Part shown: piece after piece, positions 15,868 to 38,446 of the stretch | How positions within the stretch are numbered: position 1 is the stretch's first letter | Layout: each line of letters begins with the position of its first letter | From: an uncultured Bifidobacterium sp. | Lineage (GTDB): Bacteria > Verrucomicrobiota > Verrucomicrobiia > Limisphaerales > JADLHS01 | Assembly (NCBI GenBank): GCA_964594985.1 | Contig: CAZQNQ010000006.1 | Location: forward strand, 1,997-65,996 | Reading direction: 5' to 3' | Length of the DNA: 64,000 nt | Made by a program: the position numbers and the translations under genes | The notes under the pieces: generated by a model | Told to the model about the DNA's origin: nothing | Database searches by the model: none | The model's input: only the letters and a program-made list of their open reading frames with translations

Positions 15868-17268
15868 ATGAATCTCTTCGAGTTGCTTGAACGCACGGCG
15901 GCCCGTCTGCCGGCGAAGCCGGCTTTGATCGAGGACGACCAAGTCGTGGCGTACGCCGAACTGCTGCGCCGCGCGGAAGAACTGGCGCTCGCGCTGAAAG
16001 CACAATCCATCGGAGCGAGGCAACGCGTCGGTCTGGCATTTCCCAACAGCATCGCGTATGTGGTGCTGACGTTTGCGCTGTGGCGCTTGGGCGTGGCCGT
16101 CGTGCCCGTGCCGACGGAATGTTCCGAGGATGAGGTGCAGGAGATTTGTGTCGCGATGCAACTGACCGGCCTGCTTACGCCGAAGCCGCGCGCGAGCAGT
16201 GCGGCCATCACGTCGGATTGTCACTTCACCAAACTTCAACCCGCATCGCCGCCGGACAATCACGGGTTGGACCTGGCGTTTATCCGCTTCACGTCCGGCA
16301 CGACCAGCACGCGCAAAGGCGTGGCGCTGTCGCATGAGACGATTCGTGATCGCGTCGCCTCCGCCAACAAAGCCTTCGGCATCACGGCGGACGACACGGT
16401 GATCTGGTGTCTGCCGATGGCGCATCACTTCCTCATCACCATCGTGCTCTACCTCGAAGCCGGCGCAACCGTGGTGCTCGCGCGGCATGTGACGGCGAAA
16501 CCCTTCCTTGATGCCGTGAATCGCTGGCAGGGCACGGTGCTGTATGCCGCGCCGTTCCATTACGCGATGCTGGCGCGCGATAATTCGGCGGTGCAGATTC
16601 CGTCCGTGCGCCTGGCGGTGTCCACGACGTGCGCGTTGCCGGAGAACGTCGCGCAGGATTTTTTCAAGCGCTTCAACCAGCCGCTCGTGCAAGGGCTTGG
16701 GGTGATCGAACTCGGCCTCGTGGCGCTCAACACCGCCGCGCCGCGCGAGAAGTGGAATTCCGTCGGTCGCGTCGCGGGCGATTTCGAGTGGCGCATCGTG
16801 AATCCCGACGCGGCGGGCGCGGGCGAACTGGCGGTGCGCGGTCCGGGCATCTGCGATGCCTACGTCGCGCCGTGGGTTTCGCGCGAACAGCTTTTGCGCG
16901 AGGGTTGGTTTTTCACCGGCGACATCGGACGCGGAGATGCGGAGGGGTTTCTATTTCTGCTCACGCGTAAGACCGCGGTCATCAATCTCGCGGGCCGCAA
17001 AGTTTTCCCGGAAGAGATCGAAGCCGTGCTCAATCGTCACCCCGAGGTGATCGAGTCGCGCGTTTGCGGCCGGCTGCACCCGCATCTCGGCGAGACGGTG
17101 GAGGCGGAACTGGTTTTGCGGCAGCCGGAAGCGAGCCTTGATCCCATCCGCGCTTATTGCCGGGAACATCTCGCCTCCTACAAGATTCCCACCCGTTTTA
17201 CCGTTGTCTCTGCCTTGCCCCGGACGCCCGTCACTGGCAAGCTTCGCCGCGCCGCTCCGGTGGCCTGA
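15868..17268 (+). CDS. AMP-dependent synthetase/ligase (acyl/aryl-ACP or -CoA ligase, ApeH-like position)
   Basis: AMP-binding core FTSGTTSTRKGV, FTGDIG, and a C-terminal KIP...TGKL motif. Its stop TGA directly abuts the ATG of the ACP gene. Confidence 0.85.
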   Translation: MNLFELLERTAARLPAKPALIEDDQVVAYAELLRRAEELALALKAQSIGARQRVGLAFPNSIAYVVLTFALWRLGVAVVPVPTECSEDEVQEICVAMQLTGLLTPKPRASSAAITSDCHFTKLQPASPPDNHGLDLAFIRFTSGTTSTRKGVALSHETIRDRVASANKAFGITADDTVIWCLPMAHHFLITIVLYLEAGATVVLARHVTAKPFLDAVNRWQGTVLYAAPFHYAMLARDNSAVQIPSVRLAVSTTCALPENVAQDFFKRFNQPLVQGLGVIELGLVALNTAAPREKWNSVGRVAGDFEWRIVNPDAAGAGELAVRGPGICDAYVAPWVSREQLLREGWFFTGDIGRGDAEGFLFLLTRKTAVINLAGRKVFPEEIEAVLNRHPEVIESRVCGRLHPHLGETVEAELVLRQPEASLDPIRAYCREHLASYKIPTRFTVVSALPRTPVTGKLRRAAPVA

Positions 17269-17523
17269 ATGATTGAAGCGTCAGAAATTGAAACCAAACT
17301 CCTCGACTTCCTGAAACGCGAAGTGTTCGCGCCCGAGGTTGTCGTCACAACTGAAACCGATCTGCTCGCGTCGGGTTTTGATTCCATGTCGCTCGTGCGC
17401 GTGTTGCTCTTCATCGAGCAGAGCTACGGCTTCTGGCTGCCCGAAGGCGAAATCACCGGCGACGCGTTGCAGAATGTCCGCTCCCTGGCCACCACCGCCG
17501 CCCGTTTGCTCAATGCCCGGTAA
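17269..17523 (+). CDS. Acyl carrier protein
   Basis: 84 aa with the phosphopantetheine-site motif GFDSMSLVRVL. Confidence 0.8.
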   Translation: MIEASEIETKLLDFLKREVFAPEVVVTTETDLLASGFDSMSLVRVLLFIEQSYGFWLPEGEITGDALQNVRSLATTAARLLNAR

Positions 17524-18781
17524 GCTCCCACTCAACGGTTGCGATTACCTCATGCTCGGGTTCGACCATGAGTTGCGGCGTCATGGTTTTGCAGGGAATT
17601 CCTGCCAGATCGAATTGGAACTGGACGCCGCCATCTCGCCTGATGTTCTGCGCCAACGCATCGCCGCGCTGGTGGAGCGCTATCCCATCCTGCGCGCGCG
17701 CCCGTGTGGCTGGTGGATGCCGAAATGGAAACTGCCCTCGGCCCGCGCGCCGCAGCCGCAGGTCCGGGTTCACCAAGCTGCTCCCGGACTGCGCGAAAAA
17801 CTTTGCGACGAGCCGCTCGATCTGAAGCGCGGCAAACTTTTCCGTCTCGATCTCATCGAACACGACGGCGGCATGACCGTCATCTTCACTTGGTCGCACG
17901 CGCTCATGGACGCGAACAGCGCGGAACATTTCGTGGCGTTGCTCGGTCGCGAAGACATTCCGCTGCCCGCCCTTGCGCCCCAGATCACCTCGCGTCTGCC
18001 GCCGACGTTTCGCGAGCGGTTCAAGCTTGCGCACCAGGGCATCCTGCAATTCGACGAGTTCATCAAAAACCAGCCGCGCACCGTCGGGGTGCGGTTTCCC
18101 CGGGCGCCCCGGGTGCAGCGTTTCCGGGTCGAACATTTTTCTGCCGCGGAAACCGCCCAGGTCCGCGCCAATGCCACGAAGCTGTGCGGCGTGCTCGGGG
18201 GCGCGCAATTCCACGCCGCCTGCACGGTGATCGAGCTGCATCAACTGCATCAGCGCGCCGGCAAGCCAAGTGTGAGCTATGTCCTGCCCATGCCCGTCAG
18301 CCTGCGCGGCAAAGGCAGCGTCGAACCGCTGTTCTGCAATCAGGTCGCGATGATGATGATGCAGTTGTTCCCCGCGCAATTGGACACGACCGTGAACGCC
18401 GTGGCCGCGCTCAAGCCGCAGATCGCCCAGGGGATGCGCAACGGCCGGATCGAAACGGGCGTGGCCATCGCGGAAGTTTTCCGTTTTCTGCCGCTCACGC
18501 CGTACATGTTCATGCTCAAGTACGGCCTGCGCGGAGAAATCTGTTCCTTCTTTTACGGCGACGTCGCCGCCGTCACGCCGCTGCTCACAACTTTTTGCGG
18601 CGCAACCATCCGCCAGTTCACGCACATCGGGGCCACCACGCCGTCGCCGGGCATCGGCGCGGTGTTCTATTCGTTTCGCGGCGAATTGCGCGTCACGATC
18701 TTTCACCTGGAAACCCATTTCACCGCTGCGGAAGCCGAATTGTTTGCGAGGGGGCTGCGCGCACGGCTGCTCAACCCGTGA
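17513..18781 (+). CDS. Condensation/acyltransferase-like protein (HxxxD motif)
   Basis: Subset of ORF 17339..18781, starting at MPGKLPLNGCDYLMLGF and overlapping the ACP stop by 11 nt. FTWSHALMDANSAEHF resembles the HHxxxDG catalytic motif of condensation/WS-DGAT-type acyltransferases. The family assignment is tentative. Confidence 0.45.
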   Translation: MPGKLPLNGCDYLMLGFDHELRRHGFAGNSCQIELELDAAISPDVLRQRIAALVERYPILRARPCGWWMPKWKLPSARAPQPQVRVHQAAPGLREKLCDEPLDLKRGKLFRLDLIEHDGGMTVIFTWSHALMDANSAEHFVALLGREDIPLPALAPQITSRLPPTFRERFKLAHQGILQFDEFIKNQPRTVGVRFPRAPRVQRFRVEHFSAAETAQVRANATKLCGVLGGAQFHAACTVIELHQLHQRAGKPSVSYVLPMPVSLRGKGSVEPLFCNQVAMMMMQLFPAQLDTTVNAVAALKPQIAQGMRNGRIETGVAIAEVFRFLPLTPYMFMLKYGLRGEICSFFYGDVAAVTPLLTTFCGATIRQFTHIGATTPSPGIGAVFYSFRGELRVTIFHLETHFTAAEAELFARGLRARLLNP

Positions 18782-19923
18782 ACCCGCGCGCGGACATCGC
18801 AGTCGTCGGTGCCGGTGCGGCGGGAATCGCCGCCGCTGTTTGCGCGGCGCGGGCCGGGGCGAACACGATGCTGTTCGACGCGCGTTCCGCGCCCGGCGGC
18901 ACCGGTGGGTTCAGCGGATTGACCACGCTTTGCGGCCTCTACGATGGCGCGGGGATTTTTCTCAATGACGGTTTTGTGCGCGAGTTTGCCGAAGCCGTGA
19001 TGGAGCGCCGAGCACCGGCTCGGCCAGTTGTTGAAGATTTGAATCGAGCCGAGGCGGCGCTCGGCGCTCCGCTTCGCATGGGGCGTGTTTGGGTGCTGCC
19101 GTATCGCCCGGAGAAGTTTCGCGAAGTGGCGGCGGAGTTTGTTTCCCCCATGCTTAACTTGCGGGTGCAGTGGAACACGCCGCTGGCTGGGGTGGTTTTT
19201 GAATCAGCTCGCATCACGCACCTCAACGGTTTTGAAGTCGGTGCCGTGATTGATTGTACTGGCATGGCGGAAGTGGCGCAGGCGGTCGGCGTGGAAACCC
19301 TGGCCACGGACGAAACCACGCAAGCTCCCGCGGTCATCTTTCCCCTGCGAAACGTAGCGCGCTCATTGGAGACCGCAGCGGACATGACGCAAGTGCTGTT
19401 GCCGCTGGCTCGTGCGGGTTTTCCGCCACTGAATCTACAGGCAAGCCTGACGCCGGGGGAGTACACGGCAAAGTTCGCTGGAACGCCGGAGCAGGTGCCG
19501 CAACTCATCGCTTTCCTGCGGGCCAGCGTTCGTGGCTTCGAGCAATGTGAAACGTCACAGCAAGAATTTCCTGTGGCCCGTCGCGCCGGGCGGATGATTG
19601 TCGGCCAGTATGTCCTGACCGGCGCGGATGTGTTGGCGGGAAGAAAATTTTCAGATGCCGTCGCGCGTGGCGGGTGGCCCATCGAACAGTGGGATGCCAA
19701 AGGCGCGGTGCGATTCAAATACCTTCCGGCGGGAGCAAGCTATGACATTCCGGCGCGGGCGCTGCGGGCGGCGCGGGTGGATAATCTGTTCATGGCCGGC
19801 AAAAGCATCAGCGCGGATGTGGACGCCATCGCCAGCGCGCGGGTGATGGGCTGCTGCCTGGCTACCGGTGCGGCGGCTGGAGTTCTGGCGGCGAACTTTG
19901 TAGCCTCGACGAAAATCAGGTGA
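18778..19923 (+). CDS. FAD-dependent oxidoreductase
   Basis: Subset of ORF 17704..19923. GTG start overlapping the upstream stop (GTGA). Dinucleotide fold IAVVGAGAAGIAAAVCAARAG and C-terminal MAGKSISAD...ASARVMGCCLATGAAAG. Carries a 69-bp palindromic element in frame (19002-19070). Confidence 0.7.
   Translation: MNPRADIAVVGAGAAGIAAAVCAARAGANTMLFDARSAPGGTGGFSGLTTLCGLYDGAGIFLNDGFVREFAEAVMERRAPARPVVEDLNRAEAALGAPLRMGRVWVLPYRPEKFREVAAEFVSPMLNLRVQWNTPLAGVVFESARITHLNGFEVGAVIDCTGMAEVAQAVGVETLATDETTQAPAVIFPLRNVARSLETAADMTQVLLPLARAGFPPLNLQASLTPGEYTAKFAGTPEQVPQLIAFLRASVRGFEQCETSQQEFPVARRAGRMIVGQYVLTGADVLAGRKFSDAVARGGWPIEQWDAKGAVRFKYLPAGASYDIPARALRAARVDNLFMAGKSISADVDAIASARVMGCCLATGAAAGVLAANFVASTKIR
19002..19070. 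repeat. Palindromic element (GGAGCGCCGAGC family) inside the FAD-oxidoreductase ORF
   Basis: ggagcgccgagc...gctcggcgctcc, 69 bp = 23 codons. Translated as ERRAPARPVVEDLNRAEAALGAP. Confidence 0.8.
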
Positions 19924-21164
19924 CCAAAACCTTCGACCAACTCTGGGCTGGGACGTTTCGCCACGCGGCGGAACATTCGCCGTATTACCGGGAACTGTTT
20001 CGCGGTCGGGCGGAAGTGCCGGCGCTGGAAGCTGTGCCGCTGCTCGCCAAGCAGACGTTGTCCGAGCGGAATCTGGATTTTCTCTGCGTGCCGCGCGAGC
20101 GCGTGGTCGAGATTGTCACCACCAGCGGCACAACGGGGCATCCGCTGCTCTGGATGTTGACCGAGGCCGATGTGAAACGGCTTGCGGTGAACGAGCAACT
20201 CTCCTTCGGCTGCGCCGGACTGACGGCGCGAGACACGGTGCTCGTCGCGGTGGCGATGGACCGGTGCTTCATGGCGGGGCAGGCCTATTGGTTGGGGCTG
20301 CGCGAAATCGGCTGCGGCATTGTGCGCACGGGTGCTGCGTCCCCGTTGTTGGTGCTGGAGATGATTCAGCGCGTGCAGCCGACGGCGATTGTCGGCGTGC
20401 CGTCGTTCTTGCGTCTTGTGGCGGACAAGGCGCGGGAGGTTGGCGTTGATCTCAAGCAATCCGCAATCAAGAAGCTTATCTGCATCGGCGAGCCGATTCG
20501 CGACGCAACGTTTCAATTGAATCACTCCGGCGCGGCGCTCGAAGCAATGTGGGGCGCGAAGGTTTATTCCACCTACGGCGTGACGGAACTCGCCAATTCA
20601 CTCTGCGAATGCGAAGCCGGGCAGGGCGGGCATTTGCACGAGAATCAACTACACATCGAAATCCTCGACGATGCGGGTCAGCCCGTAGCGGACGGTGAAG
20701 TCGGCGAAGTGGTCGCGACAACATTCGGTGTCGAGGCGATGCCGGTGATCCGCTATCGCACGGGCGATTGTGCGGCATTGTTTCGTGGAAAATGTGCGTG
20801 TGGCCGGACGTCGCCTCGGCTTGGGCCGATCATCGGGCGCAAGAATCAGAAGCTGAAATTCAAGGGCACATCGCTTTATCCGGCGACGCTGGCGGCGGTG
20901 TTGGAACAGAGCTCGGGCGTGGAATCATTTGTCATCATCGCGCGGAAGGAAAGTGAGCTGTCGGACGCGGTCGAGGTGCTCGTGCATGGTTCGGCGCTGG
21001 TGGCAGAATTGCGCGAAGTGTTTCAAGCGCGGGCCAGGATCACGCCGCAGATCCGGCATGCGACGCGCGAGGAGATCGAATCGTTGCAGTCGCCGCCGCA
21101 GGCGCGGAAGCGCCGGACGTTTGTGGATTTGCGAAACGAAAGTTTGCGTGGAGGTGCAGCGTGA
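19920..21164 (+). CDS. Phenylacetate-CoA ligase-like (PaaK/F390 synthetase family) adenylating enzyme
   Basis: VTTSGTTGHPL P-loop, YGVTE, and RYRTGD motifs arranged as in PaaK-family ligases. GTG start overlapping the upstream stop by 4 nt. Confidence 0.7.
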   Translation: MTKTFDQLWAGTFRHAAEHSPYYRELFRGRAEVPALEAVPLLAKQTLSERNLDFLCVPRERVVEIVTTSGTTGHPLLWMLTEADVKRLAVNEQLSFGCAGLTARDTVLVAVAMDRCFMAGQAYWLGLREIGCGIVRTGAASPLLVLEMIQRVQPTAIVGVPSFLRLVADKAREVGVDLKQSAIKKLICIGEPIRDATFQLNHSGAALEAMWGAKVYSTYGVTELANSLCECEAGQGGHLHENQLHIEILDDAGQPVADGEVGEVVATTFGVEAMPVIRYRTGDCAALFRGKCACGRTSPRLGPIIGRKNQKLKFKGTSLYPATLAAVLEQSSGVESFVIIARKESELSDAVEVLVHGSALVAELREVFQARARITPQIRHATREEIESLQSPPQARKRRTFVDLRNESLRGGAA

Positions 21165-21436: not shown

Positions 21437-21531
21437 TTCGCGGTTTTTCATCCGGAAATCATTTTTGAGAATCACTCTGGCGCTCCGGGCTTTTTCATAA
21501 ACTCGCCGGCAGGATGCCGGCGCTCCCAGGC

Positions 21532-22659
21532 ATGAAACCCTGCGTCCTCATCCCGTGTTACAACCACTCCGCCACCGTGGGCGCAGTGGCGCAGGCGGCA
21601 TTGACGCACGCGCCGGTCATCGTGGTGGACGATGGTTCGACGGAGCCTCTGCCGGAGTTGCCGGGATGTGAAATTGTTCGGTTGAAACAGAACGGCGGCA
21701 AGGCGACGGCATTGCGGGCGGGGTTTCAACGCGCGGTGGAACTTGGTTTCACCCACGCCATCACGATGGATGCGGATGGTCAGCATTTTACCGAGGATCT
21801 CCCGAAGTTTCTCACGGAAGCCCAGCAGAAGCCGGAAGCGTATCTCGTCGGAGTGCGGAATTTCCGGGAAGCCGGCTGTCCGACGCACCGGCGGCGTTCC
21901 AATGCCATCTCAACATTCTGGTATCGCGTCGAGACGGGCGTGCGACTGCGCGACACGCAATGCGGTTTTCGCTGCTATCCGCTCGCATTGGTGCAGCAGT
22001 TGCAGATCCGGTCGGATCGCTACGCGTACGAGTTGGAGTTCATGGTGCGCGCGGCGTGGGTGGGCACGGCCATCGTGGCGATCCCGGTGAAATGCACTTA
22101 CGAACCGGGCAAGACCGGCACGTCGCACTTCCGCACGGTGCGCGACTTCGTGCATATCACGAACCGCAACATCATCCTCGTGTTGCAAACGTGGCTCGTG
22201 CCGTTGTCGCTGCGGGTGGATTGGTCCCGGGGGCGAAAGAACAAGTTCGGGCGCGTTCTCCATGAGTTTTTTACGGAGCACGCCCACGAACCGGGGCGGC
22301 TGGCGGTGGCGGTGGGGCTGGGACTGTTCTTCGGCATTCTGCCCATCTATGGATTCCAGATGGTGGTCGCGGCGGCCGTGGCCCATAAGCTGCGCGTGAA
22401 CAAGGCGATCACCTTGCTCGCGAGCAATATTTCCATTCCCCCCGTTGCCCCATTTATTTTTTGTGCGGCGCTGGTGCTGGGGCACTGGTTGCTGACGGGC
22501 GAGGTTTTGAAACTGTCACCGCAGTTGATCACCCGGGAAACATTGTGGGAATACCTGGGCGATTGGCTGTTTGGGAGCCTGGCCCTGGCCATCGGGGTTT
22601 CCGTCATTGGGATGATAGTGACCTACGGCATCGCGCGCTTGGTGCGGAGGAAGGGCTGA
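21532..22659 (+). CDS. Family 2 glycosyltransferase fused to a C-terminal multi-TM (DUF2062-like) domain
   Basis: CVLIPCYNHSATV, VVDDGSTE and AITMDADGQH (DxD) are GT2 signatures. The C-terminal third is hydrophobic. The start is set at MKPCV because the upstream ATG at 21514 lies inside a small hairpin repeat. Confidence 0.75.
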   Translation: MKPCVLIPCYNHSATVGAVAQAALTHAPVIVVDDGSTEPLPELPGCEIVRLKQNGGKATALRAGFQRAVELGFTHAITMDADGQHFTEDLPKFLTEAQQKPEAYLVGVRNFREAGCPTHRRRSNAISTFWYRVETGVRLRDTQCGFRCYPLALVQQLQIRSDRYAYELEFMVRAAWVGTAIVAIPVKCTYEPGKTGTSHFRTVRDFVHITNRNIILVLQTWLVPLSLRVDWSRGRKNKFGRVLHEFFTEHAHEPGRLAVAVGLGLFFGILPIYGFQMVVAAAVAHKLRVNKAITLLASNISIPPVAPFIFCAALVLGHWLLTGEVLKLSPQLITRETLWEYLGDWLFGSLALAIGVSVIGMIVTYGIARLVRRKG

Positions 22660-27744: not shown

Positions 27745-27748
27745 TCGC

Positions 27749-29576: not shown

Positions 29577-29945
29577 TTATTTTGCCAGCAACAAAATGGT
29601 TTCGCCCGCGGCTTGTCCCGTGACGGAGAAGCTGGCGCGGACCTGAAGCATGTCGGCTTTCTCCACCAATTTCAATTCCACGCGCACGGTTTCATCGGGG
29701 ATGATGGGACGCAGAAATTTTGCCTTCGGGATTTCGCGCACGTGGAGCGGTTCGTTCCGCGTCAGTTCGGCGGCGAACCGCGCGATCTCCAGTTGAAACA
29801 TGCCGGGCAGCAGCGGGCGCGTCGGGAAATGGCCGGCGAACGTCGGATCGGTCGTGGGAAAGCGGAACTCGAACAGAGTCGCGCCGTCGGATTGAGGCAG
29901 CGGTCCGCTGAGGCGGGCGGCCGCAATCGAGTCGCGCAGGTTCAT
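29577..29945 (-). CDS. Hotdog-fold 3-hydroxyacyl-ACP dehydratase (FabZ/ApeI-like)
   Basis: FAGHFPTRPLLPGMFQLE matches the FabA/FabZ HFP..P..PG active-site region. 122 aa. Confidence 0.7.
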   Translation of the reverse strand: MNLRDSIAAARLSGPLPQSDGATLFEFRFPTTDPTFAGHFPTRPLLPGMFQLEIARFAAELTRNEPLHVREIPKAKFLRPIIPDETVRVELKLVEKADMLQVRASFSVTGQAAGETILLLAK

Positions 29946-30445
29946 GGCTTTTCCGCCTGGGTGGCGTCGAACAGGGTCGCGGGCTGGCTTCCGGGTTGGA
30001 TGTTCACGATTTGCACGTCGAGCTTATACCAACGCCGCTGGATGAGGAAATGATTTGGTCCCAGCGTCTCGCCGGGACAATTGTTCGTAATTGCGCTTCC
30101 AAATAGACAACTCACATCCGCCGCCACATAACGCTCGATCCATTTCGGCTTGAAGGCGCGACTAGATTTCATCACGTGCGCCTTTCCGTCCGGCGTCACC
30201 AGCACATCGGCCAACACTCCGCCGAAGTTTTCCGTGAGAACAAGGCGTTGTCCGTTCGTGGCGCTGGTGGCAAGGTAGCCGTTGAGAGTGAATTGTTTTC
30301 CGCCGAACACGGTCAAGAGGCCGCGCTGTGTGATGAGGGCGTCAGCGGGAAAAGTCTGGGCCGGGCGCTGAATCTGCGTGCGCGGCGCGGTGGCGCACCC
30401 CGAGAGAAAAACAACCACCGCCAGCGATAGGAATGCGATGAACAC
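29942..30445 (-). CDS. Lipoprotein (position equivalent to DUF3261/ApeN of aryl-polyene clusters)
   Basis: Subset of ORF 29942..30610. A GTG start at 30445 gives VFIAFLSLAVVVFLSGC (lipobox LSGC). The longer ORF extension runs through a REP region. The family call rests on context only. Confidence 0.45.
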   Translation of the reverse strand: MFIAFLSLAVVVFLSGCATAPRTQIQRPAQTFPADALITQRGLLTVFGGKQFTLNGYLATSATNGQRLVLTENFGGVLADVLVTPDGKAHVMKSSRAFKPKWIERYVAADVSCLFGSAITNNCPGETLGPNHFLIQRRWYKLDVQIVNIQPGSQPATLFDATQAEKP

Positions 30446-30599: not shown

Positions 30600-31292
30600 C
30601 TACTTTGCATCGTTCACCAGAGCTTTGATCGCCGTCAACTCCGCCGGCTTGGTTTGATCGAACGTCTTTTCGGGAAAGATCACGCCGCGCTTCTCGCGCT
30701 TGAAGATGATGCGGGTCAGATCGCCGCCGGGTTCGCGCATCACCACTTCCTTCGTCGCGGACAGGTCGGAATGCAGATGGATTTCCAGCGCGGCCAGCAT
30801 GGCGCGGACGTTCTCATCCTTCGGGATCATCGTCACCACGGTAACAGCGCCGGTGGCCACCGAGATCGTGAAATCGCTCGTGAGCGCGTCGAGCTTGCCC
30901 TGGTGCATGAGCGTCATCTGATCCATCACGCGCTTGAGCATCTGCGGGAAACCGAGTTTGAGCTTCTTCCACTGGCCGTCGGCAAACTCGAATTGCGCCA
31001 CGGACTTCTGATTGCCGAGCAGGATGGATTGATAGGGCGACGTGGTCTCCCAGCGGATCTGGCCGGGCCGATCAATCAGCATCACGCCCTCGCTCTTGAG
31101 CGGTTCGGCGAACAGTTTCAACTGCCGCTCCTGCGTGAACTCCAGATAGACCGACGTCAACGACGACATCTTCTGCTGCAGATCGGCGAGAATCGGCTTG
31201 GGGTCGGCCACGGGTGTGAGTTTTTGGGCGTCTTCGGCAATGCCGGCAGAAACGCTCAAGCTGAAGAGCAAAAATGCCAGCAAAGACGCCAT
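30600..31292 (-). CDS. LolA-like outer-membrane lipoprotein carrier protein
   Basis: Subset of ORF 30600..31874, starting at MASLLAFLLFSLSVSAG (signal peptide). EFTQERQLKLFAEPLKSEGVMLIDRPGQIRWE resembles the LolA-family core. The upstream ORF extension is made entirely of repeats. Confidence 0.6.
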   Translation of the reverse strand: MASLLAFLLFSLSVSAGIAEDAQKLTPVADPKPILADLQQKMSSLTSVYLEFTQERQLKLFAEPLKSEGVMLIDRPGQIRWETTSPYQSILLGNQKSVAQFEFADGQWKKLKLGFPQMLKRVMDQMTLMHQGKLDALTSDFTISVATGAVTVVTMIPKDENVRAMLAALEIHLHSDLSATKEVVMREPGGDLTRIIFKREKRGVIFPEKTFDQTKPAELTAIKALVNDAK

Positions 31293-31870: not shown

Positions 31871-32638
31871 TCATCCTAACATTCGGTCCAGCCGCACGAC
31901 TTCGTAGCCGTGTTCGCGCAGCTTGGCGAGCAGCAATTTCACCGTCAGCACCAGTCGCTCGGCGGGAATGTTGCCATCGTGCAGCAGAATGATCGCGCCG
32001 GGTTTCAAGCCGCGTTCGATGCGTCGCACGATCTGTTCGGGATCGGTGCTGCGTCGGTCGAGGCTGCGGATGTTCCAGCCGATGACTTTCAATCGCAGCG
32101 CCGTAGCGGCGTGAAACGTGTTGGGATTCGACAAACCGACGGGCGGGCGAAAAAAGCGTGGCGTCGTACCGGTGTGCTTTTGAATCGTCTGCTGGGCGCG
32201 CGTCAACTCGGTGGTGAGCTTGCGGGTGGAATAAAAATTCGTCGCGTTGCTGTGCTCGTAGGTGTGGTTTTCCAGCAGATGACCACCACGGAGGATCTGA
32301 TTCGCCAACTCGGGGGTCGCATCCACTTTCTTGCCGATGACGAAGAACGCGGCTTCGACGTCATGTTCGCGCAACAGTTCCAGCAGGGCGGGCGTGGCGC
32401 GCGGGTCCGGGCCGTCATCGAAGGTGATTGCGACCTGGCGTTTGTCTGACTTGCCGTGACAGATAAAATCACCGAAGAAACTGAGTTGCGGAATCGCCAC
32501 GCCCAAGCCGATGGCGAGAAACAGAGTGAGAATGGAAGCATTGACCAGCACCCACTGGCCGCAAGCCAAAGCCACGGCGGCGGTCGAGGTTGCCAACAAG
32601 GCGATGAGATGAAAACGCGTCACGGCTCGACGCAGCAT
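31871..32638 (-). CDS. Polysaccharide deacetylase (NodB homology domain), membrane-anchored
   Basis: Subset of ORF 31871..32830, starting at MLRRAVTRF. Two N-terminal TM segments, then VAITFDDGPDP, HTYEH and ILLHDG (NodB motifs). Confidence 0.8.
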   Translation of the reverse strand: MLRRAVTRFHLIALLATSTAAVALACGQWVLVNASILTLFLAIGLGVAIPQLSFFGDFICHGKSDKRQVAITFDDGPDPRATPALLELLREHDVEAAFFVIGKKVDATPELANQILRGGHLLENHTYEHSNATNFYSTRKLTTELTRAQQTIQKHTGTTPRFFRPPVGLSNPNTFHAATALRLKVIGWNIRSLDRRSTDPEQIVRRIERGLKPGAIILLHDGNIPAERLVLTVKLLLAKLREHGYEVVRLDRMLG

Positions 32639-34818
32639 AGCGCCTTGCCGCCGCGCAAGGAAAGCGTGTAGAGCAACACACCGCACTGTTGTTCGCGCGC
32701 CAGTTCGACGGCTTTCGCGAAGCCCACGGCGGAGGCTGAGTAAAATTCCCCGCAATGCTGTTTGTAGGTCTGTTGCTCGATGGTGCGGCCAACGCGTTGG
32801 GACAACGCCGCGATGACCGCGTCGTAACAAGCGTCCAACTGCGGCCAGCCTTTCGCGCCGGTCACGACTGTTTTGATCCGGGTCAGGTCAACGGCCTGCG
32901 CGATCCACTCAGCCTCAAGCGCGGCGGCAAACGGGCGTTCGTAGCGGCCCAGGCGGACAGCGGTCACGCGGGCGAGCGGAGTTTTGTTCGTCGCCGGGCT
33001 GGCGAGATTCGCGATCACGGCGGCTTCGCCGGGAATCGTCTGTTCGTTCCAAAGCCCCCAGCGTTTGCCGATGGAGAGCGGATACTTGCTCAGTTCATCC
33101 ACCGCGCCGGCCAGGGCTTCATCGGCCTCGCCGTTGTTGATTTGATTCAACGCCTGCCAGAGCGCGCTTTCGAATGAAAGTTCACCCATCGTCGGCGCGG
33201 AATTCAAACCGGTTGCCCCCAGATCAATCGCAACCTGGCCGGCGGGCGCGTTGTGAACCGAGCCGGGGAAACGGGTCGGCATCGGTTCGGCTTCGTCCTT
33301 GATGAAAAGATTTTCGATGAACACCGCGCCTTCTTCCAGACAACCGAAGCCCGTGCCGATGGCAATGGCGAGTCGCTTCGTCGGATCAGCAGGATGGCTG
33401 CGGCGCGCGGCGAGGATGGCCATCTGGATGATGCGGCTGAGGCGGCGGCGTTGCGTCGGATTGAGCGTGGCCGCGTCGGCCAACGGGCCACAGGCGCGAA
33501 CGCGCACCGAGTCAGGCGGCAGCGGCGGTTGAATGGCTCGCTCCGTGATGGAATTTATTTCCGGGGCGATGACGCCCAAGCCGGTGATGAGGACGGGTGC
33601 GATGAGCGTGCCGCGGGTTTGCGGCGTCGTCTCGGGCGTGGAAAAGATCAACACGGCATTGTTGCCGCCGAAGCCGAACGAGTTGCTCATCACGTGGGTC
33701 AACTTCGCGGCGCGCAGTTCGGTGACAGGCGTGAGGCCGATGGCGGGGTCAAGTTGCGTGAAACCCGGATTCGCCGGGAGTTGCTGGCGTCGCAGCGCTT
33801 CGATGCAGACCACGGCTTCAATCGCCCCGCTCGCGGCGAGGGAGTGGCCGAAAAACCGTTTCGTGCTGGAGAACGGCGGGATGTTTTCGCCGAATAGCGA
33901 TTTAAGCGCCCGGCCTTCGGCGACGTCATTGTCGCGCGTGCCGGTGCCGTGGGCGTTCACGTAGCCGATGTCCGCCGGAGTCAGCCCGGAGCGCCGGAGT
34001 GCCGATTGCATCGCCGCGAGCGCGCCCGCGCCGTCGGGATGCGGTGCCGTGACATGATGCGCGTCGCAACTTGCACCCCAACCGCTGAGGCGGGCGAGGA
34101 TTTTTGCGCCACGTTTCCGGGCGTGTTCTTCGGCTTCGATGATCAGCACGGCCGCACCTTCGCCAAAACTCATCCCACCACGTGTGGCGTCGAAGGGACG
34201 ACAACCTTGCGAATCCACCAGCAGCAGCGAGTGAAATCCCGCCCAGGTCGTGTGTGAGAGCGAATCCGTGCCGCCGGCCAGCATCACGTCGGCCTGGCCG
34301 GATTGGATCAACTCCGCTGCGGTGGCGATGGCCAGTGCGCCGGACGAGCAGGCGGTGGCGATTGCGAAGCTCGGTCCGAGCAGACCAAACGCATCCGCCA
34401 CCAGGTCCACCGGCGAGAAGCATTCGTGAAAGCGCGTCGGACGGGCGCGCATCTTTTTCTCTTTGATGAGCGCGGTGAGAAAGCGTTCCGTGTCGTAGGT
34501 GCCGCCGACGGAACTGCCGAGCAAGACCCCGGTGCGGTCGGCGACTGATCTTGGATCGAGGTTGGCCGAGTGGAGTGCGTCACGCGCGGCGAGCCAGGCC
34601 AGTTTATCGCTGCGCGAGCCTCGCAATGGAGCGCCGAGCGCGGTGAGGTCGCGGGTGATTTCGCCGACGGGAATCTGTCCGTAGCGCGGCGAAGGAAAGA
34701 GGGTGAGGGGTTTGAGGCCGTCTTGACCGGCGGCGATGGCGGCCCAGATTTCGTCCGCGCCACTGCCGGGGGCGGCGATGACGCCCAGGCCGGTGATGAC
34801 TGGGAAGCGGTCGGCCAC
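32620..34818 (-). CDS. Fused beta-ketoacyl synthase + KS-like (chain-length-factor-like) domain
   Basis: The N-terminal half has the active-site Cys context ATACSSGALAI, plus HVTAPHPDG, NAHGTGT and GHSLAASG. The C-terminal half is KS-like but lacks the Cys context (APTMGELSFESAL). Confidence 0.85.
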   Translation of the reverse strand: MADRFPVITGLGVIAAPGSGADEIWAAIAAGQDGLKPLTLFPSPRYGQIPVGEITRDLTALGAPLRGSRSDKLAWLAARDALHSANLDPRSVADRTGVLLGSSVGGTYDTERFLTALIKEKKMRARPTRFHECFSPVDLVADAFGLLGPSFAIATACSSGALAIATAAELIQSGQADVMLAGGTDSLSHTTWAGFHSLLLVDSQGCRPFDATRGGMSFGEGAAVLIIEAEEHARKRGAKILARLSGWGASCDAHHVTAPHPDGAGALAAMQSALRRSGLTPADIGYVNAHGTGTRDNDVAEGRALKSLFGENIPPFSSTKRFFGHSLAASGAIEAVVCIEALRRQQLPANPGFTQLDPAIGLTPVTELRAAKLTHVMSNSFGFGGNNAVLIFSTPETTPQTRGTLIAPVLITGLGVIAPEINSITERAIQPPLPPDSVRVRACGPLADAATLNPTQRRRLSRIIQMAILAARRSHPADPTKRLAIAIGTGFGCLEEGAVFIENLFIKDEAEPMPTRFPGSVHNAPAGQVAIDLGATGLNSAPTMGELSFESALWQALNQINNGEADEALAGAVDELSKYPLSIGKRWGLWNEQTIPGEAAVIANLASPATNKTPLARVTAVRLGRYERPFAAALEAEWIAQAVDLTRIKTVVTGAKGWPQLDACYDAVIAALSQRVGRTIEQQTYKQHCGEFYSASAVGFAKAVELAREQQCGVLLYTLSLRGGKALCCVEP

Positions 34819-34937: not shown

Positions 34938-35195
34938 TCAGGTGCCGCGCCGGGCTTCGATGAAGTCCGCCAGCGTGCGGACGGAGCGGAAGGCGGGCCG
35001 GCCCTCCTCGATGTCCTTGATGACGATGCCGTAATTTTTTTCGAGCATCACCACAAGTTCCAGCGCATCAATGGAGTCCAGCCCCAGACCCGCGCCAAAC
35101 AGCGGCGCTTCATCTTCGATCTGGTCCGGGCTGATGTCCTGCAGGTTGAGCGATTCGATGATTCGCGCCTTTAATTCCGTCGTTGGGATGGCCAT
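34938..35195 (-). CDS. Acyl carrier protein
   Basis: 85 aa with LGLDSIDALELVVMLE (DSxD phosphopantetheine site). Confidence 0.85.
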   Translation of the reverse strand: MAIPTTELKARIIESLNLQDISPDQIEDEAPLFGAGLGLDSIDALELVVMLEKNYGIVIKDIEEGRPAFRSVRTLADFIEARRGT

Positions 35196-35198: not shown

Positions 35199-35786
35199 TT
35201 ACTTCGTCAGATTTTGCGGGCGCAGGGTAGCACAGAGCGCTTCCATGTCACGGCGATTTTCCCCCAGTTCGGTCCCGCCCGGCCCGGTTCGGCTCAACAG
35301 CACCGCAACGGCCCGCGCAACTTCAGGTGCAGGAATCATCTTTGTTAGCGCGGGTGAAACAATGTGCGTAAAAACGGCGACGCAGGCATCGGCCTCGCCG
35401 GTGCGCAATAACTCCGCCGCTTCCGGCAAAACATCCTGGCTGCCACCGACGAAGCAGAGATTCGGGCCGGTGAGGCGATGGCGGATGGCGATCTCGCCGA
35501 TGGCGGCACTGGGCAGCGTGTAGGTGAACAGCGTCGGGCTGAGGCCGCCGGGTTCATTGCGGGCATTCCAGAAGGCGACATCCGTGGGCAACGACCCGGT
35601 CTGCGCCGCGAGCACGATGGCGATGCGATCGCGGGCGAATGTTTCGAAGTGCGGCGCGAACGGTTCGACCACGAGCAAGCTGAGTTGGCTCGCCAGATCC
35701 ATGCGCCCGAACCGCGTGCCTAGCCGGGCATTGGCAACATCGGCGCTCGTGACAGAACTGGTGGCGAGGATGAAGGCGTTACTCAT
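35199..35786 (-). CDS. KS N-terminal-like small protein (possible chain-length factor/partner subunit)
   Basis: 195 aa. It overlaps the upstream KS gene by 8 nt. It shows weak KS-N-terminal-like features (LSPTLFTYTLPSAAIGEIAIRHRLTGPN). The call rests mostly on context. Confidence 0.45.
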   Translation of the reverse strand: MSNAFILATSSVTSADVANARLGTRFGRMDLASQLSLLVVEPFAPHFETFARDRIAIVLAAQTGSLPTDVAFWNARNEPGGLSPTLFTYTLPSAAIGEIAIRHRLTGPNLCFVGGSQDVLPEAAELLRTGEADACVAVFTHIVSPALTKMIPAPEVARAVAVLLSRTGPGGTELGENRRDMEALCATLRPQNLTK

Positions 35787-36999
35787 GGCTCAGGATCAAG
35801 GCGCCGTTCACTCCGCCGAAACCGGTGTTGAGTTTCAAAACATGTTTCAGCGCGACACCGGGCCGCGGAGTTTTCACCAGACTGGCGGGAAGTCCTTCGG
35901 CAATCGTGTCCAAGCGGGGCGTTCCCGGCAGAAAGTTTTCCTGCATCGCCAGCACACATGCGATGGTTTCAACGACGCCGGCTGCGCCCAGCGTGTGGCC
36001 CAACATGCCCTTGATGCCGCTGAGGGGCGGGATGGCGTCGCCGAAGACCGTGCGCAACGCGGCGGATTCCATGGCGTCGTTGTACGGCGTGCCCGTGCCG
36101 TGGACGTTGACGTAATCAATCTGCCCGGGCTGCAACTTCGCAGTGTGAAGCGCGGCGCGGATGGCTTGGGCGAGACCCGCGCCGTCGCGCGACGGGCCGG
36201 TCATGTGGTTGGCGTCATTGCTCGAACCCCAGCCGCGAATGGTGATGGAAGATTTTGGTGCGAGGTCGCTGCGCACGAGCATAATTGCCGCACCTGCTTC
36301 TCCAGGGCTGAGGCCGCGGCGGTTTTGGTCGAATGGGCGGCAACCTTCCGGATCAATCGCCTTGAGGGTGGTGAAACCGCCGACGACAAAGGCGGACAGA
36401 TGATCCACGCCAACAACGAGCACGGCGTCGGCCGCGCCGCGTTGGATGAGTTTCGCGCCCTGCATCAATGCCACAAGGCCGGAGACGCAGGCGTTGGAGA
36501 TGTTTTGCACCGGGCCACGCGCGCCAAATTCAGCGGCGAGGTCGGCGGTGAGGAGATCGGCTTGCAGATGACGACGCGCGGCGGCAGAGCAGGGGCGGCC
36601 ATCAGAGAGGCGTTCGAGCGCTTCGATGTTGGCCTTGGTGGTGGAGAGCACCAAGCCGAGGCGATCGGGGGAAATGTCCACGGTAGGGCGCGTCACTCCG
36701 TGCGCGCCGTCGTTGCCAGGAAGAAGCCCGGCGCGCACGGAGTGACGCGTCCTACCATCGCAGGTCGCAGAAATTGCTTCGCGAATCGCGATGGTCGCGA
36801 GTTGATGCGCGGGGTTGTCGGTGGCAGGGTCAATCGGCGCAGTGCCGACGATGTTGGATTGGAAGCGCAGGGCGTTGAAACGTTCGTTCGGGCGAAGGTG
36901 GCTGGTGTTGGTGCGCAGAGCTTCGAGCAAGGCGGAAGTGCCGTTGCCCGCCGCGCTGATGACGCCGCAGCCCGCGATGGCAACTTGCGGCTCACGCAT
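35779..36999 (-). CDS. Beta-ketoacyl-ACP synthase (FabF/FabB-like)
   Basis: ISNACVSGLVALMQGA (active Cys), HMTGPSRDG, NVHGTGT and GHTLGAAG. Carries a 75-bp palindromic insertion in frame (36682-36756). Confidence 0.9.
   Translation of the reverse strand: MREPQVAIAGCGVISAAGNGTSALLEALRTNTSHLRPNERFNALRFQSNIVGTAPIDPATDNPAHQLATIAIREAISATCDGRTRHSVRAGLLPGNDGAHGVTRPTVDISPDRLGLVLSTTKANIEALERLSDGRPCSAAARRHLQADLLTADLAAEFGARGPVQNISNACVSGLVALMQGAKLIQRGAADAVLVVGVDHLSAFVVGGFTTLKAIDPEGCRPFDQNRRGLSPGEAGAAIMLVRSDLAPKSSITIRGWGSSNDANHMTGPSRDGAGLAQAIRAALHTAKLQPGQIDYVNVHGTGTPYNDAMESAALRTVFGDAIPPLSGIKGMLGHTLGAAGVVETIACVLAMQENFLPGTPRLDTIAEGLPASLVKTPRPGVALKHVLKLNTGFGGVNGALILSHE
36682..36756. repeat. 75-bp palindromic element inside the ketosynthase ORF
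   Basis: ggtagggcgcgtcactccgtgcgcgcc ... ggcgcgcacggagtgacgcgtcctacc (27-nt arms, 1 mismatch). 25 codons, translated as CDGRTRHSVRAGLLPGNDGAHGVTRPT. Confidence 0.85.
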
Positions 37000-37402
37000 A
37001 CAACGACAAATCTCCGGTCGCGATGAGTTCCGCGTCGCAGGAAATCTTTCCTGTGATCATCAGCATCGGACCGAGGCGTTTCACTTCGCGGACTTCGATG
37101 GTCAAAGTCTGATCGAGCGGCGGGCGGGAGTGAATCTTGAAGTTTGAGACGGCGGCGAGCATGCCGTTGTTGGCTGTGCCGGATTTGCCGCCGGCCTGCA
37201 TCCGCTGACCGAGCGCGGCGGCGACGGTCTGGGCCATGCATTCAACCAGTGCGGTTTCAATCACCATTCCATTCACGACCGCAAAATGTTCGGCCGGGAA
37301 ACGTGTCGTGGCCGTCGCGGTGGTTTCCGTGCAATCAAGCAATTCTTCCACCCAGCGCATCGGAGCGCGGTGGGGAATGAGTTGTTCGATGGCGGCGGAC
37401 AT
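36992..37402 (-). CDS. Hotdog-fold dehydratase/thioesterase-like protein (ApeP-like position)
   Basis: 136 aa. LIPHRAPMRWVEEL resembles the LPHR.P...VD N-terminal motif of FabZ-like proteins. Overlaps the downstream KS by 8 nt. Confidence 0.6.
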   Translation of the reverse strand: MSAAIEQLIPHRAPMRWVEELLDCTETTATATTRFPAEHFAVVNGMVIETALVECMAQTVAAALGQRMQAGGKSGTANNGMLAAVSNFKIHSRPPLDQTLTIEVREVKRLGPMLMITGKISCDAELIATGDLSLYA

Positions 37403-37405
37403 TTG

Positions 37406-38446
37406 TTAGTGTGCGCTGGGGTTGGGCGATGCCCCCCTCACCCCGTCCCTCTCCCCATCGGATGGGGCGAGGGGGGCCGTCAGGGTGGGTGAGGGGTTGG
37501 CGTGCGGATTGGATTGTTCGTTGCCGTTCGGGGTGGGTTTGGCCGCTTCCCAGAACGGGAAAAAATTATACCACTGGAACGGGTCGCGCTTGACGATGGT
37601 TTCAAGGCGCGCGGCGAATTGCGTGGCACAGGCGCGGAGATGGGCGTCGCGTTGGTGATGGGGCGGATGATGCGGCGGCACGGGCGGAAAGCCGAAGAAG
37701 TGATAATGCCCGCCCGGTTCGCGCAAACTGAACACCGTGACGATCGGAGCGCCCGCAATCGCCGCCATGACGTAGCCGCCGATGGGGAAGTGCGCTTGCC
37801 CACCGAGGAATGAAATGGTCTGTGCCGGGCTGCCGTAGGTGCGGTCACCCATCATGCAGACGAGTTCACCGCGCCGCATCGCCGCGACAAGCTGGATGGC
37901 GTCGGTGGGCGAGCCGGTGAGCGGGATGAGTTTGAAATGTTGCTTTGCGGAGCGGTCCAGGGTCGCGCGGATGGCGGGCGCTTCCTTGTCAAAGCCGGTG
38001 ACGTTGATGGGGCATTTGACGCGTGAAAGGAGCTGGCCGGCGGCTTCCCAATTGCCGACGTGCGCGGTGAGGAGCAACACGCCTTTGCCGGCGGCGACGG
38101 CGTCGTGGATGTTCTGTTCGCCATCGAACGTGAAGGAAAATTTATTCGCGCCGCCGGCAAGGATGGCGGAGCGATCAATGATGGCGCGGCCGAACGAGTG
38201 GAAATGTTTGAACACATACCAGCGGCGTTTCCACCACGGGATTTTACCGAAGACGCGGCGGTGGAAATCCATTGTGGCCGGCACGTCGGGCGAGGCGAAG
38301 CTGAAATACAGCGCGGGCGGGATCGCGAAGAGATACGCGACGCGCGGGCCGAACCAGCGGATGAGCGCGAGGAAGAACGCGATGCCGCGTTTGCCGCCGC
38401 GCAACTGGCCGGTGCCGGACCAGTGTTTGGTTTCAGGCGCAGCCAT
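37406..38446 (-). CDS. LpxL/HtrB-family (lipid A lauroyl-type) acyltransferase
   Basis: LLTAHVGNWEAAGQ (the H-x4-E/D box of the LpxL/HtrB family) and an N-terminal membrane segment. The last about 30 codons are encoded by a 63-bp palindromic repeat (37434-37496). Confidence 0.7.
   Translation of the reverse strand: MAAPETKHWSGTGQLRGGKRGIAFFLALIRWFGPRVAYLFAIPPALYFSFASPDVPATMDFHRRVFGKIPWWKRRWYVFKHFHSFGRAIIDRSAILAGGANKFSFTFDGEQNIHDAVAAGKGVLLLTAHVGNWEAAGQLLSRVKCPINVTGFDKEAPAIRATLDRSAKQHFKLIPLTGSPTDAIQLVAAMRRGELVCMMGDRTYGSPAQTISFLGGQAHFPIGGYVMAAIAGAPIVTVFSLREPGGHYHFFGFPPVPPHHPPHHQRDAHLRACATQFAARLETIVKRDPFQWYNFFPFWEAAKPTPNGNEQSNPHANPSPTLTAPLAPSDGERDGVRGASPNPSAH
37434..37496. repeat. 63-bp palindromic element (CCCCTCACCCC family) forming the C-terminal tail of the LpxL-like ORF
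   Basis: cccctcaccccgtccctctccccatcggatggggcgaggggggccgtcagggtgggtgagggg. Translated as ...PTLTAPLAPSDGERDGVRG. Confidence 0.85.

Follow-up and report, generated by a model that had tools for sequence, protein, structure and literature searches.

The region at positions 15868–38446 of a 64-kb stretch of DNA from a Verrucomicrobiota genome (assembly GCA_964594985.1, contig CAZQNQ010000006.1; the whole stretch is hereafter referred to as the window) appears to belong to the aryl-polyene (APE) family of lipid gene clusters, as a member of the flexirubin type organized in two convergent operons. We assign a probability of about 0.72 to this reading. A first-pass annotation, made from the letters alone, had designated the region an aryl-polyene-family type II polyketide synthase (PKS)/lipid cluster with atypical gene content. 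The family assignment was borne out by colinearity with the flexirubin (flx) cluster of Chitinophaga pinensis and by one-to-one matches with the Ape proteins of Escherichia coli CFT073. The label "atypical" did not hold, since most of the enzymes regarded as extra are standard in the flexirubin clusters of C. pinensis and Flavobacterium johnsoniae and stand there in nearly the same order (PMC3992019). APE lipids have been counted among the bacterial natural-product families of widest distribution (bioRxiv 10.1101/2020.12.19.423268), and the label "arylpolyene" is already given by antiSMASH to loci of this kind in isolates of Verrucomicrobiota (PMC9865893). If our reading is right, the locus shows a flexirubin-type architecture reaching into Verrucomicrobiota, lyase and ketoreductase genes that are dispensable in cis, and a four-gene acyl-activation/transfer module added in at least two phyla. 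It overturns nothing known, and it offers a concrete target for asking how the sugar head group of outer-membrane pigments gets decorated.

Gene content of the two arms

The coordinates and junctions of the open reading frames (ORFs) in both arms agreed with genes called independently on a short contig of identical sequence; the gene positions, the two arms and the tight junctions reported at first pass were thus reproduced. The plus-arm junctions comprise a TGA-ATG abutment (17268/17269), an 11-nt overlap (17513/17523) and GTGA overlaps (18778/18781 and 19920/19923). The earlier domain calls for both arms were confirmed by Pfam, NCBIfam and BLAST, with the exception of the tetratricopeptide-repeat (TPR) part of the C45 protein, for which Pfam gave no match at E <= 0.01. 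All 19 cluster genes are full-length and their catalytic motifs are intact. The genes are listed below, the plus arm as A1–A7 and the minus arm as B1–B12.

A1, 15868..17268 (+): FadD/MenE-like acyl-AMP ligase, first gene of the plus arm (AMP-binding, 191.7 bits, and AMP-binding_C)
A2, 17269..17523 (+): acyl carrier protein (ACP) paired with A1 (PP-binding, 23.5 bits)
A3, 17513..18781 (+): stand-alone condensation-fold (PapA/WS-DGAT/AzeD-like) HxxxD protein (motif, predicted fold)
A4, 18778..19923 (+): FAD-dependent oxidoreductase, PF12831 (FAD_oxidored, 212.8 bits)
A5, 19920..21164 (+): FlxY-type (PaaK/F390-synthetase-like) aryl-CoA ligase (NCBIfam FlxY_rubin)
A6, 21514..22659 (+): GT2 plus DUF2062 glycosyltransferase, as FlxT and the N-terminal half of ApeJ (Pfam, BLAST)
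A7, 22699..26529 (+): fusion of MMPL exporter, PlsC acyltransferase and SAM methyltransferase, FlxU-type (Pfam)
B1, 37406..38446 (-): LpxL-like acyltransferase, as FlxE and the C-terminal half of ApeJ (Lip_A_acyltrans, 77 bits)
B2, 36992..37402 (-): hotdog protein, ApeP/FlxF-like dehydratase partner (weak FabZ, 29 bits)
B3, 35779..36999 (-): ketosynthase (KS), ApeO/FlxI-like (Pfam KS N and C domains)
B4, 35199..35786 (-): small KS-like protein without active site, FlxL-like, a partner of the chain-length-factor (CLF) type (Ketoacyl-synt_2)
B5, 34938..35195 (-): ACP, ApeE/FlxM-type (BLAST, NCBIfam)
B6, 32620..34818 (-): covalently fused KS and CLF, as FlxN plus FlxO (Pfam KS N and C domains; Ketoacyl-synt_2 at residues 448–570)
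B7, 31871..32830 (-): NodB-type deacetylase, FlxP (Polysacc_deac_1, 118.4 bits)
B8, 30600..31292 (-): LolA-like carrier, FlxQ/ApeL (LolA2_flexi as top NCBIfam model)
B9, 29942..30445 (-): lipoprotein at the FlxR position (LSGC lipobox, conserved orthologues)
B10, 29577..29945 (-): ApeI/FlxS-like dehydratase (PF22818 ApeI-like, 29.5 bits, over the cut-off)
B11, 27749..29404 (-): C45 N-terminal-nucleophile (Ntn) acyltransferase/hydrolase, FlxW (AAT, 70.3 bits; NF040521, 183 bits)
B12, 27040..27858 (-): PlsC-type acyltransferase, ApeD-like, last gene of the minus arm (Acyltransferase, 65.9 bits)

Correspondence with the flexirubin and ape clusters

In the flx table of C. pinensis (PMC3992019 supplement), flxE encodes an LpxL-like protein, flxF a dehydratase (DH)-like protein, flxI a KS, flxL a small condensing-enzyme-like protein, flxM an ACP, flxN a KS, flxO a CLF-like protein, flxP a polysaccharide deacetylase, flxQ a LolA protein, flxR a hypothetical protein and flxS another DH-like protein. 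The minus arm of the window is colinear with this flxE-F-I-L-M-N/O-P-Q-R-S order, and the PaaK-like ligase, the GT2 protein, the MMPL-PlsC-methyltransferase fusion and the C45 protein are the counterparts of FlxY, FlxT, FlxU and FlxW, respectively. The F. johnsoniae flexirubin cluster (Fjoh_1075–1110) consists of the same parts as flxA–flxY of C. pinensis (PMC3992019). The core order of flx and of the window's minus arm recurs in two Bacteroidales loci (L065 and L078), and homologues of the GT2, fusion and C45 proteins occur in these and in the Bacteroidales locus L055 at 26–38% identity. The two flexirubin-specific models FlxY_rubin and LolA2_flexi are the top NCBIfam matches of A5 and B8.

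The window differs from the C. pinensis cluster in that (i) KS and CLF are fused in B6, whereas flxN and flxO are separate, (ii) the genes form two convergent operons instead of one cluster, (iii) the FlxA lyase, the FlxB short-chain dehydrogenase/reductase (SDR), FlxC/D, the FlxH thioesterase, the FlxK halogenase, FlxV and FlxX are missing, several of which are found in relatives, and (iv) the A1–A4 module and an additional PlsC gene are present. The LpxL-like protein, NodB, C45 and the second ligase had been counted as extra enzymes at first pass; all are listed in flexirubin clusters, and the LpxL-like protein also matches the C-terminal half of ApeJ. Since counterparts exist in one or both of the characterised APE subfamilies, these enzymes are for the most part standard equipment.

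Comparison with the ape clusters (apeA–R) of E. coli CFT073 and Xenorhabdus doucetiae revealed a shared set of KS, CLF, ApeE-like ACP, ApeI/ApeP dehydratase pair, GT2 and LpxL-like acyltransferase, ApeD-like PlsC, MMPL exporter and LolA-like carrier. In BLAST searches against CFT073, which are the source of the Ape comparisons given here, A6 matched ApeJ residues 4–224 (39% identity, E = 3e-45) and B1, which has an HX4E motif, matched residues 247–550 (28% identity, E = 1e-24). ApeJ of E. coli hence combines in one chain two proteins that the window encodes separately. A7 is a single 1276-aa ORF with orthologues of 1274–1275 aa in two Verrucomicrobiota loci (L003 and L005), and it matched both ApeM (E = 9e-11) and ApeD (E = 2e-12); FlxU has been described as exporter plus acyl- and methyltransferase (PMC3992019). 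Counterparts of ApeQ, ApeK, ApeG, ApeA and ApeH are lacking in the window, the starter ligase is of the FlxY type and not the ApeH type, and NodB, C45 and A1–A4 have no counterpart in ape. When the ape core set (KS, ACP, CLF, DH, ketoreductase [KR] and transporter; bioRxiv 10.1101/2020.12.19.423268) was compared with the window, KS, CLF, ACP, a DH pair and a transporter of the resistance-nodulation-division (RND)/MMPL type were found, and the KR (ApeQ) was not.

The individual proteins of the minus arm agree with this picture. B2 matched ApeP at E = 7e-5, and B10 had 6qsr as its best PDB match and is 38% identical to ApeI (E = 3e-11). In B3 the Cys-His-His-Lys residues are intact and ApeO is the best E. 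coli match (E = 6e-45). Its small neighbour B4 (195 aa) scored 21.6 bits with Ketoacyl-synt_2, under the cut-off of that model, and is kept at the same position in Verrucomicrobiota and Bacteroidales loci. The ACP B5 carries a DSI motif, scored 79.5 bits with NF006617 (cut-off 70, exceeded) and matched ApeE at E = 1e-25. The N-terminal half of B6 keeps Cys-His-His and the C-terminal half is without Cys, as in ApeC; B6 matched ApeR at E = 7e-54, its C-terminal half matched ApeC weakly (E = 2e-4), and its orthologue in the Verrucomicrobiota locus L090 has been called as 717 aa. B7 contains the metal/catalytic motifs TFDD and HTYEH. Its L090 orthologue has 255 aa, and its true start probably lies near 32640, downstream of the longest-ORF start. 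B8 scored 85–87.4 bits with LolA2_flexi versus a cut-off of 125, and matched ApeL at E = 4e-9. It is about 230 aa long and not 424, as its signal peptide begins at M195 of the long ORF; the N-terminal 195 residues of that 424-aa "LolA" ORF were rejected as coding sequence, because that stretch reflects a 293-bp repeat inserted there. No match to B9 was obtained in the Pfam and NCBIfam scans, and alignment with ApeN/DUF3261 by hhalign gave a probability of 26%, confined to the signal/lipobox region. B11 shares its annotation with FlxW and Fjoh_1076 and has a 36% identical homologue in L055; a search of PDB sequences gave nothing beyond a weak NAAA match. B12 possesses an HX4D motif and matched ApeD (E = 6e-5), and its true start is probably downstream of the longest-ORF start.

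In the plus arm, A5 matched NF053551 FlxY_rubin with 426 bits (E = 1e-127) against an equivalog cut-off of 520; it thus matches FlxY at the family level and not as a strict equivalog. FlxY of C. pinensis was assayed as a 4-coumarate-CoA ligase (PMC3992019), and by similarity A5 probably serves in starter activation.

The ketosynthases are distinct from FabF and FabB

Placement of the KS genes with housekeeping FabF/FabB was a finding that the first-pass annotation had named as capable of undoing it. According to such an explanation, the KS, ACP and dehydratase genes would belong to housekeeping fatty-acid synthesis and lie next to envelope-lipid genes by chance. By pairwise score, the KS half of B6 does stand a little nearer to FabF than to either ApeO or ApeR. 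Pairwise PDB scores could not tell the KS of B3 and B6 from FabF, hence a tree that included cluster-embedded orthologues was needed. In the resulting neighbour-joining (NJ) tree, constructed without bootstrap and with E. coli KS included, B3 grouped with its Verrucomicrobiota orthologues beside the Bacteroidales FlxI-like KS and ApeO, and the KS of B6 fell in a cluster-embedded FlxN-like clade that includes Verrucomicrobiota, Desulfobacterota, Spirochaetota and Bacteroidota. E. coli FabF and FabB fell apart from B3 and B6, which lie with cluster-embedded KS from five phyla. Scored with the FabF equivalog model TIGR03150 (cut-off 494 bits), B6 reached 361 bits and B3 214 bits. Both the equivalog scores and the tree contradict a housekeeping placement; moreover, B6 is fused to a Cys-less CLF, B5 is 57% identical to ApeE versus 33% to AcpP, and fabD, fabH, fabG and fabI are not in the locus. 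We therefore regard a chance juxtaposition of housekeeping genes as barely credible.

Absent genes and the clusters of relatives

The first-pass annotation had found no KR, thioesterase or ammonia-lyase in the cluster, and the same is true of all 64 kb of the window: when FabG, ApeQ and ApeK of E. coli were used as tblastn queries, no match was better than E = 0.1, no methylidene-imidazolone (MIO) motif of an ammonia-lyase was present, and none of the flanking ORFs had an SDR or lyase match in Pfam. The place at which relatives have the fabG-like flxB is occupied by another gene, listed here.

38546..38932 (-): WG-repeat, lipoprotein-like gene upstream of the minus arm (WG_beta_rep, 86.7 bits)

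Between this gene and the LpxL-like gene, no trace of a degraded fabG was found. The protein is small (128 aa), secreted or lipoprotein-like, and is encoded directly upstream of the minus arm. Homologues of about 320 aa occupy the same upstream position in two relatives (L006 and L011); since these are longer, the gene in the window may be truncated. An overlapping plus-strand ORF ("orf149", 38495–38944) was rejected as a gene, being an antisense shadow of the WG_beta_rep gene.

A collection of genomes was scanned with the KS-CLF fusion as query, and 85 loci were compared in a tblastn matrix. In the scan, Verrucomicrobiota loci showed 45–88% identity and those of other phyla about 35–42%; the nearest named relatives are metagenome-assembled genomes (MAGs) labelled Verrucomicrobiota or Pedos-510. 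Conservation of the neighbourhood in relatives had been proposed at first pass as a check, and the whole minus arm proved to be syntenic in several Verrucomicrobiota loci (e.g., L006, L011 and L019), others being short contigs that show a part of it. The convergent arrangement of the arms recurs in L011 and in L019/L090. The closest relative, L006 (88% identity), has a minus arm that is likewise without KR and lyase. In L011 and L012, an SDR with 50–51% identity to E. coli FabG lies directly upstream of the LpxL-like gene; that of L011 scored 194 bits with adh_short_C2 and had FlxB_rubin_SDR as its best NCBIfam model (307 bits). The gene order is thus WG-repeat, SDR, LpxL-like in L011, versus WG-repeat followed directly by LpxL-like in the window and L006. 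An aromatic ammonia-lyase, likewise located beside the LpxL-like gene, is present in L012, L014, L015, L018 and L019 (Lyase_aromatic 523–529 bits in the three tested, L012, L014 and L019), and L012 and L019 carry halogenase-like (Trp_halogenase-like) and FlxV-like Amino_oxidase genes beside the LpxL-like gene. L019 has no nearby KR, though its lyase is kept.

Because related Verrucomicrobiota clusters carry these genes, the absence of KR and lyase is specific to the lineage and not a property of the cluster family. By its own account, the first-pass annotation would be undone by a missed KR or thioesterase together with a cluster that falls within a characterised APE family. The cluster does lie inside a characterised APE subfamily and relatives have KR and lyase genes in their orthologous clusters, but none had been missed in the window.

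The A1–A4 module

A1 (466 aa) has fatty-acid and o-succinylbenzoate CoA ligases as its best NCBIfam matches, all under their cut-offs, and BLAST against ApeH of CFT073 gave no match. Its orthologues show 63–84% identity in L003–L005 and 43–44% in two Desulfobacteraceae loci (L036 and L056). A2 has a DSM serine motif at residue 38 and stands between A1 and A3 in all relatives with the module, as A4 does directly after A3. A search of PDB sequences with A4 gave Rossmann-motif matches only and no informative relative.

A3 (422 aa) matches the Condensation family weakly (18 bits, under the Pfam cut-off) and has an invariant motif, W127-x-H129-x-L-M-D133-A. The AlphaFold2 (AF2) model is of moderate confidence, with a predicted local distance difference test score (pLDDT) of 66.5 and a predicted template modelling score (pTM) of 0.74. 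The best Foldseek match of the model is 8s6l, AzeD (E = 1e-15, TM 0.64), followed by condensation/cyclization (C/Cy) domains of nonribosomal peptide synthetases (NRPS), TRI3 and wax ester synthase/diacylglycerol acyltransferases (WS/DGAT). The A3 sequence profile also matches 8s6l weakly (E = 0.008), at a sequence identity of about 15%. It is worth noting that 8s6l is a stand-alone Pseudomonas aeruginosa protein described as the AzeD dehydratase and not as a transferase, though it was named "phthiocerol/phthiodiolone dimycocerosyl transferase" by its depositors; with a dehydratase annotation on its best structural match, A3 may be either a transferase or a dehydratase. Homologues of A3 fall into more than 120 protein clusters at 60–81% identity, the few with a source name being Verrucomicrobiota MAGs. 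A profile search for distant relatives returned the same high-identity set, with Verrucomicrobiota as the only named sources.

The complete set of four genes is found in L003, L005 and L090 and in the two Desulfobacteraceae loci (32–44% identity), where it adjoins KS-CLF, NodB, LolA, ApeQ-like KR and DH genes. No equivalent was found in the gene lists of the flx, Fjoh (F. johnsoniae) or ape reference clusters. Judged from these sequence comparisons, the A1–A4 module is conserved across Verrucomicrobiota and has no described counterpart. Downstream in L036 and L056, at about 16600–19600, a tandem pair of FabF-like KS genes and a gene for an ApeK-like thioesterase were also observed; as many as three ACP genes stand in succession, and the KS/ACP complement of these loci is richer than that of the window.

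A substitution of the ammonia-lyase starter route by A1–A4 was suggested by the lack of co-occurrence of the two in any single locus among the 85, and was rejected when L019 and L090 proved to be one contig that carries both the lyase and A1–A4. The module hence adds to the aryl-polyene route and does not replace it. This contig (contig_8281 of an uncultured Verrucomicrobiae) has its FAD oxidoreductase, FlxY, GT2, MMPL fusion and C45 genes broken into many short calls, owing either to sequencing/assembly frameshifts or to real pseudogenisation; with plus-arm and C45 genes broken, it says less about function. Most likely, A1–A4 would activate a separate acid, load it on its own ACP and transfer it to an acceptor, with the flavoprotein modifying the acid. 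Acyl-sugar lipids of mycobacteria (PDIM, sulfolipid-1 and polyacyltrehalose) are made by a FadD-PapA-MmpL logic. The cluster resembles this logic in its acyl-AMP ligase by a carrier protein, its stand-alone HxxxD condensation-fold acyltransferase and its MMPL exporter, and differs from it in that a type I PKS is lacking and A1 is short.

Proposed pathway and alternative products

The first-pass annotation had contrasted a polyene-glycolipid with a canonical aryl polyene. The contrast is a false one: a canonical ape cluster already yields an aryl polyene joined by an ester bond to N-acetylgalactosamine (GalNAc), which is phosphate-linked to diacylglycerol, and the product is assembled by ApeD and ApeJ and exported by ApeM/L/N (bioRxiv 10.1101/2020.12.19.423268). 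Since this lipid is already a polyene-aminosugar glycolipid, an outer-membrane polyene-glycolipid is the product class expected of the family. In the window, the active-looking NodB and C45 proteins together with A1–A3 make a de-N-acetylated, re-acylated hexosamine plausible. To our knowledge, a full APE lipid structure is available from one Xenorhabdus cluster only.

A pathway can be proposed in which the steps are drawn from homology, apart from (iii) and (viii), which we infer: (i) a hydroxycinnamate-type aryl acid would be activated as the starter by the FlxY-like A5; (ii) malonyl units would be added on the ApeE-like ACP B5 by the KS/CLF pairs B3 plus B4 and the fused B6; (iii) reduction would depend on a KR that is not encoded at the locus and would come from elsewhere in the genome or be FabG; (iv) the ApeI/ApeP-like pair B10/B2 would dehydrate the chain to the polyene; (v) the aryl head would probably be methylated by the methyltransferase domain of A7; (vi) a glycerol-phosphate-hexosamine anchor would be made by the PlsC-type proteins (the A7 domain and B12) and the GT2 protein A6; (vii) the LpxL-like B1, which matches the C-terminal acyltransferase half of ApeJ, would move the polyene from the ACP to the sugar; (viii) the head group may then be edited, with NodB (B7) freeing the sugar amine and re-acylation being carried out by C45 (B11) and/or A1-A2-A3, where A1 would load the ACP A2, A3 would deliver the acyl group and A4 would modify it; and (ix) the lipid would be exported to the outer membrane by the MMPL domain of A7, the LolA-like B8 and the lipoprotein B9.

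Several findings weigh against a flexirubin-type APE assignment. KR, aromatic ammonia-lyase, thioesterase and halogenase genes are absent from the 64-kb window and from the 22-kb locus of L006, so that no polyene can be made from the locus alone. The FlxY_rubin and LolA2_flexi scores are under the NCBIfam equivalog cut-offs. The two arms are not always found together, as L003 and L005 have the plus arm alone and L006 the minus arm alone, and the roles assigned to NodB, C45 and A1–A4 are inferred. Furthermore, no DarA/DarB-type (dialkylresorcinol) genes were seen in the Pfam scans of the window and tblastn with FabH found only the two KS genes (E >= 2e-4), no search with a DarA reference having been made; a true flexirubin ester is hence unlikely, though the dar genes of C. 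pinensis are at a locus separate from flx.

Some of these absences could instead reflect truly different chemistry, in which the locus makes another acylated aminosugar glycolipid without an aryl-polyene part and A1/A2 supply the synthases with a fatty acid or another acid as primer. An acylated aminosugar glycolipid had been one of the two products suggested at first pass. The lack of KR, ammonia-lyase and thioesterase in both the window and L006, an A1–A4 module foreign to the flx and ape reference clusters, and the active-looking NodB and C45 proteins are all consistent with this explanation. However, the ApeI/ApeP-type dehydratases and CLF-type partners are kept intact, which is sensible only if a reduction step takes place, and a FlxY-type aryl ligase is retained. 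Where A1–A4 occurs elsewhere, it is accompanied by aryl-polyene functions: ammonia-lyase, halogenase-like and FlxV-like genes in L019/L090 and an ApeQ-like KR in the Desulfobacteraceae loci. Given also that canonical APE products are already aminosugar glycolipids, we consider a product free of aryl polyene unlikely. The same absences would be expected of a decaying remnant, in which loss of lyase, halogenase and KR inactivated the pathway and the remaining genes have yet to erode. Genes found in relatives are indeed missing at their expected place, and repeat insertions were found inside the operons, namely in the NodB/LolA gap, the FlxY/GT2 gap and the LpxL tail. Recent decay is argued against by the state of the retained genes, 19 of 19 being full-length with conserved catalytic residues, and by L006, whose minus arm has the same reduced layout at 88% identity and points to long-term retention; L019 also lacks a nearby KR and has kept its lyase. 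A remnant is thus decidedly improbable in our view. The flexirubin-type APE assignment is accordingly preferred. A bolder form of it would have A1–A4 and NodB define an undescribed subclass of APE lipids in Verrucomicrobiota and some Desulfobacteraceae, with an extra, specially activated acyl chain on a de-N-acetylated hexosamine and with the lineage of the window having also dropped its own ammonia-lyase and KR and perhaps priming with scavenged plant hydroxycinnamates; arabinofuranosidase and GH43 genes lie in the flanks. This we put forward as a doubtful, speculative proposal.

Repeat elements and neighbouring genes

A repeat was located in the window as follows.

15555..15847 (strand.): repeat element of 293 bp just upstream of A1, with a second copy at 31351–31642
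9966, 15625, 15759, 21375, 31420, 31554, 37434 and 48700: copies of a 22-nt core

The two long copies form a direct repeat with 93% identity over 293 bp and contain inverted arms of 38 nt that are perfectly complementary and have 88 nt between them. The copy at 31351–31642 sits between NodB and LolA in the minus-arm operon, where L006 has no spacer. The element looks like one of the repetitive extragenic palindromic (REP) or miniature inverted-repeat transposable element (MITE) kind; an Rfam scan of 14000–40000, both 293-bp copies included, returned no family. The 22-nt core, GCCCTCACCCCGGCCCTCTCCC, occurs in eight copies in the window versus zero expected. One copy (9965–10028) lies in frame within the mutS ORF and encodes "...LSPSDGERDGVRG...", and the copy at 37434–37479, situated in the repeat-bearing 3' tail of B1, yields the same peptide, LSPSDGERDGVRG, in the C-terminal tail of the LpxL-like protein. 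The element is apparently tolerated within coding sequence. ORFs 15562–15843 and 21161–21535 were rejected as genes because they are shadows of the repeat.

To the left the cluster is bordered by ExbB/ExbD and to the right by an arabinofuranosidase, and the rest of the window has gene content of the Planctomycetes-Verrucomicrobia-Chlamydiae (PVC) type (DUF1559, planctomycete-type extracytoplasmic function [ECF] sigma factor, PEP-CTERM and Laminin_G_3/GH43 proteins). Next to mutS, a patch of low GC content (6001–8400; 0.53 versus about 0.61) contains genes for a PIN-domain protein (6114–6674), a 258-aa ORF without annotation and a DUF6036 nucleotidyltransferase-like protein (7797–8345), and possibly represents a mobile islet, of the toxin-antitoxin or another kind. 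Downstream of the cluster, at 39176–63891, plant-polysaccharide genes were observed, comprising the arabinofuranosidase, three GH43 proteins and several Laminin_G_3 giants, one of which has 1684 aa and a GSDH domain. The same segment contains a Ser/Thr kinase-TPR gene that adjoins an ECF sigma factor gene, and an ORF of 1335 aa is located at 57786–61793.

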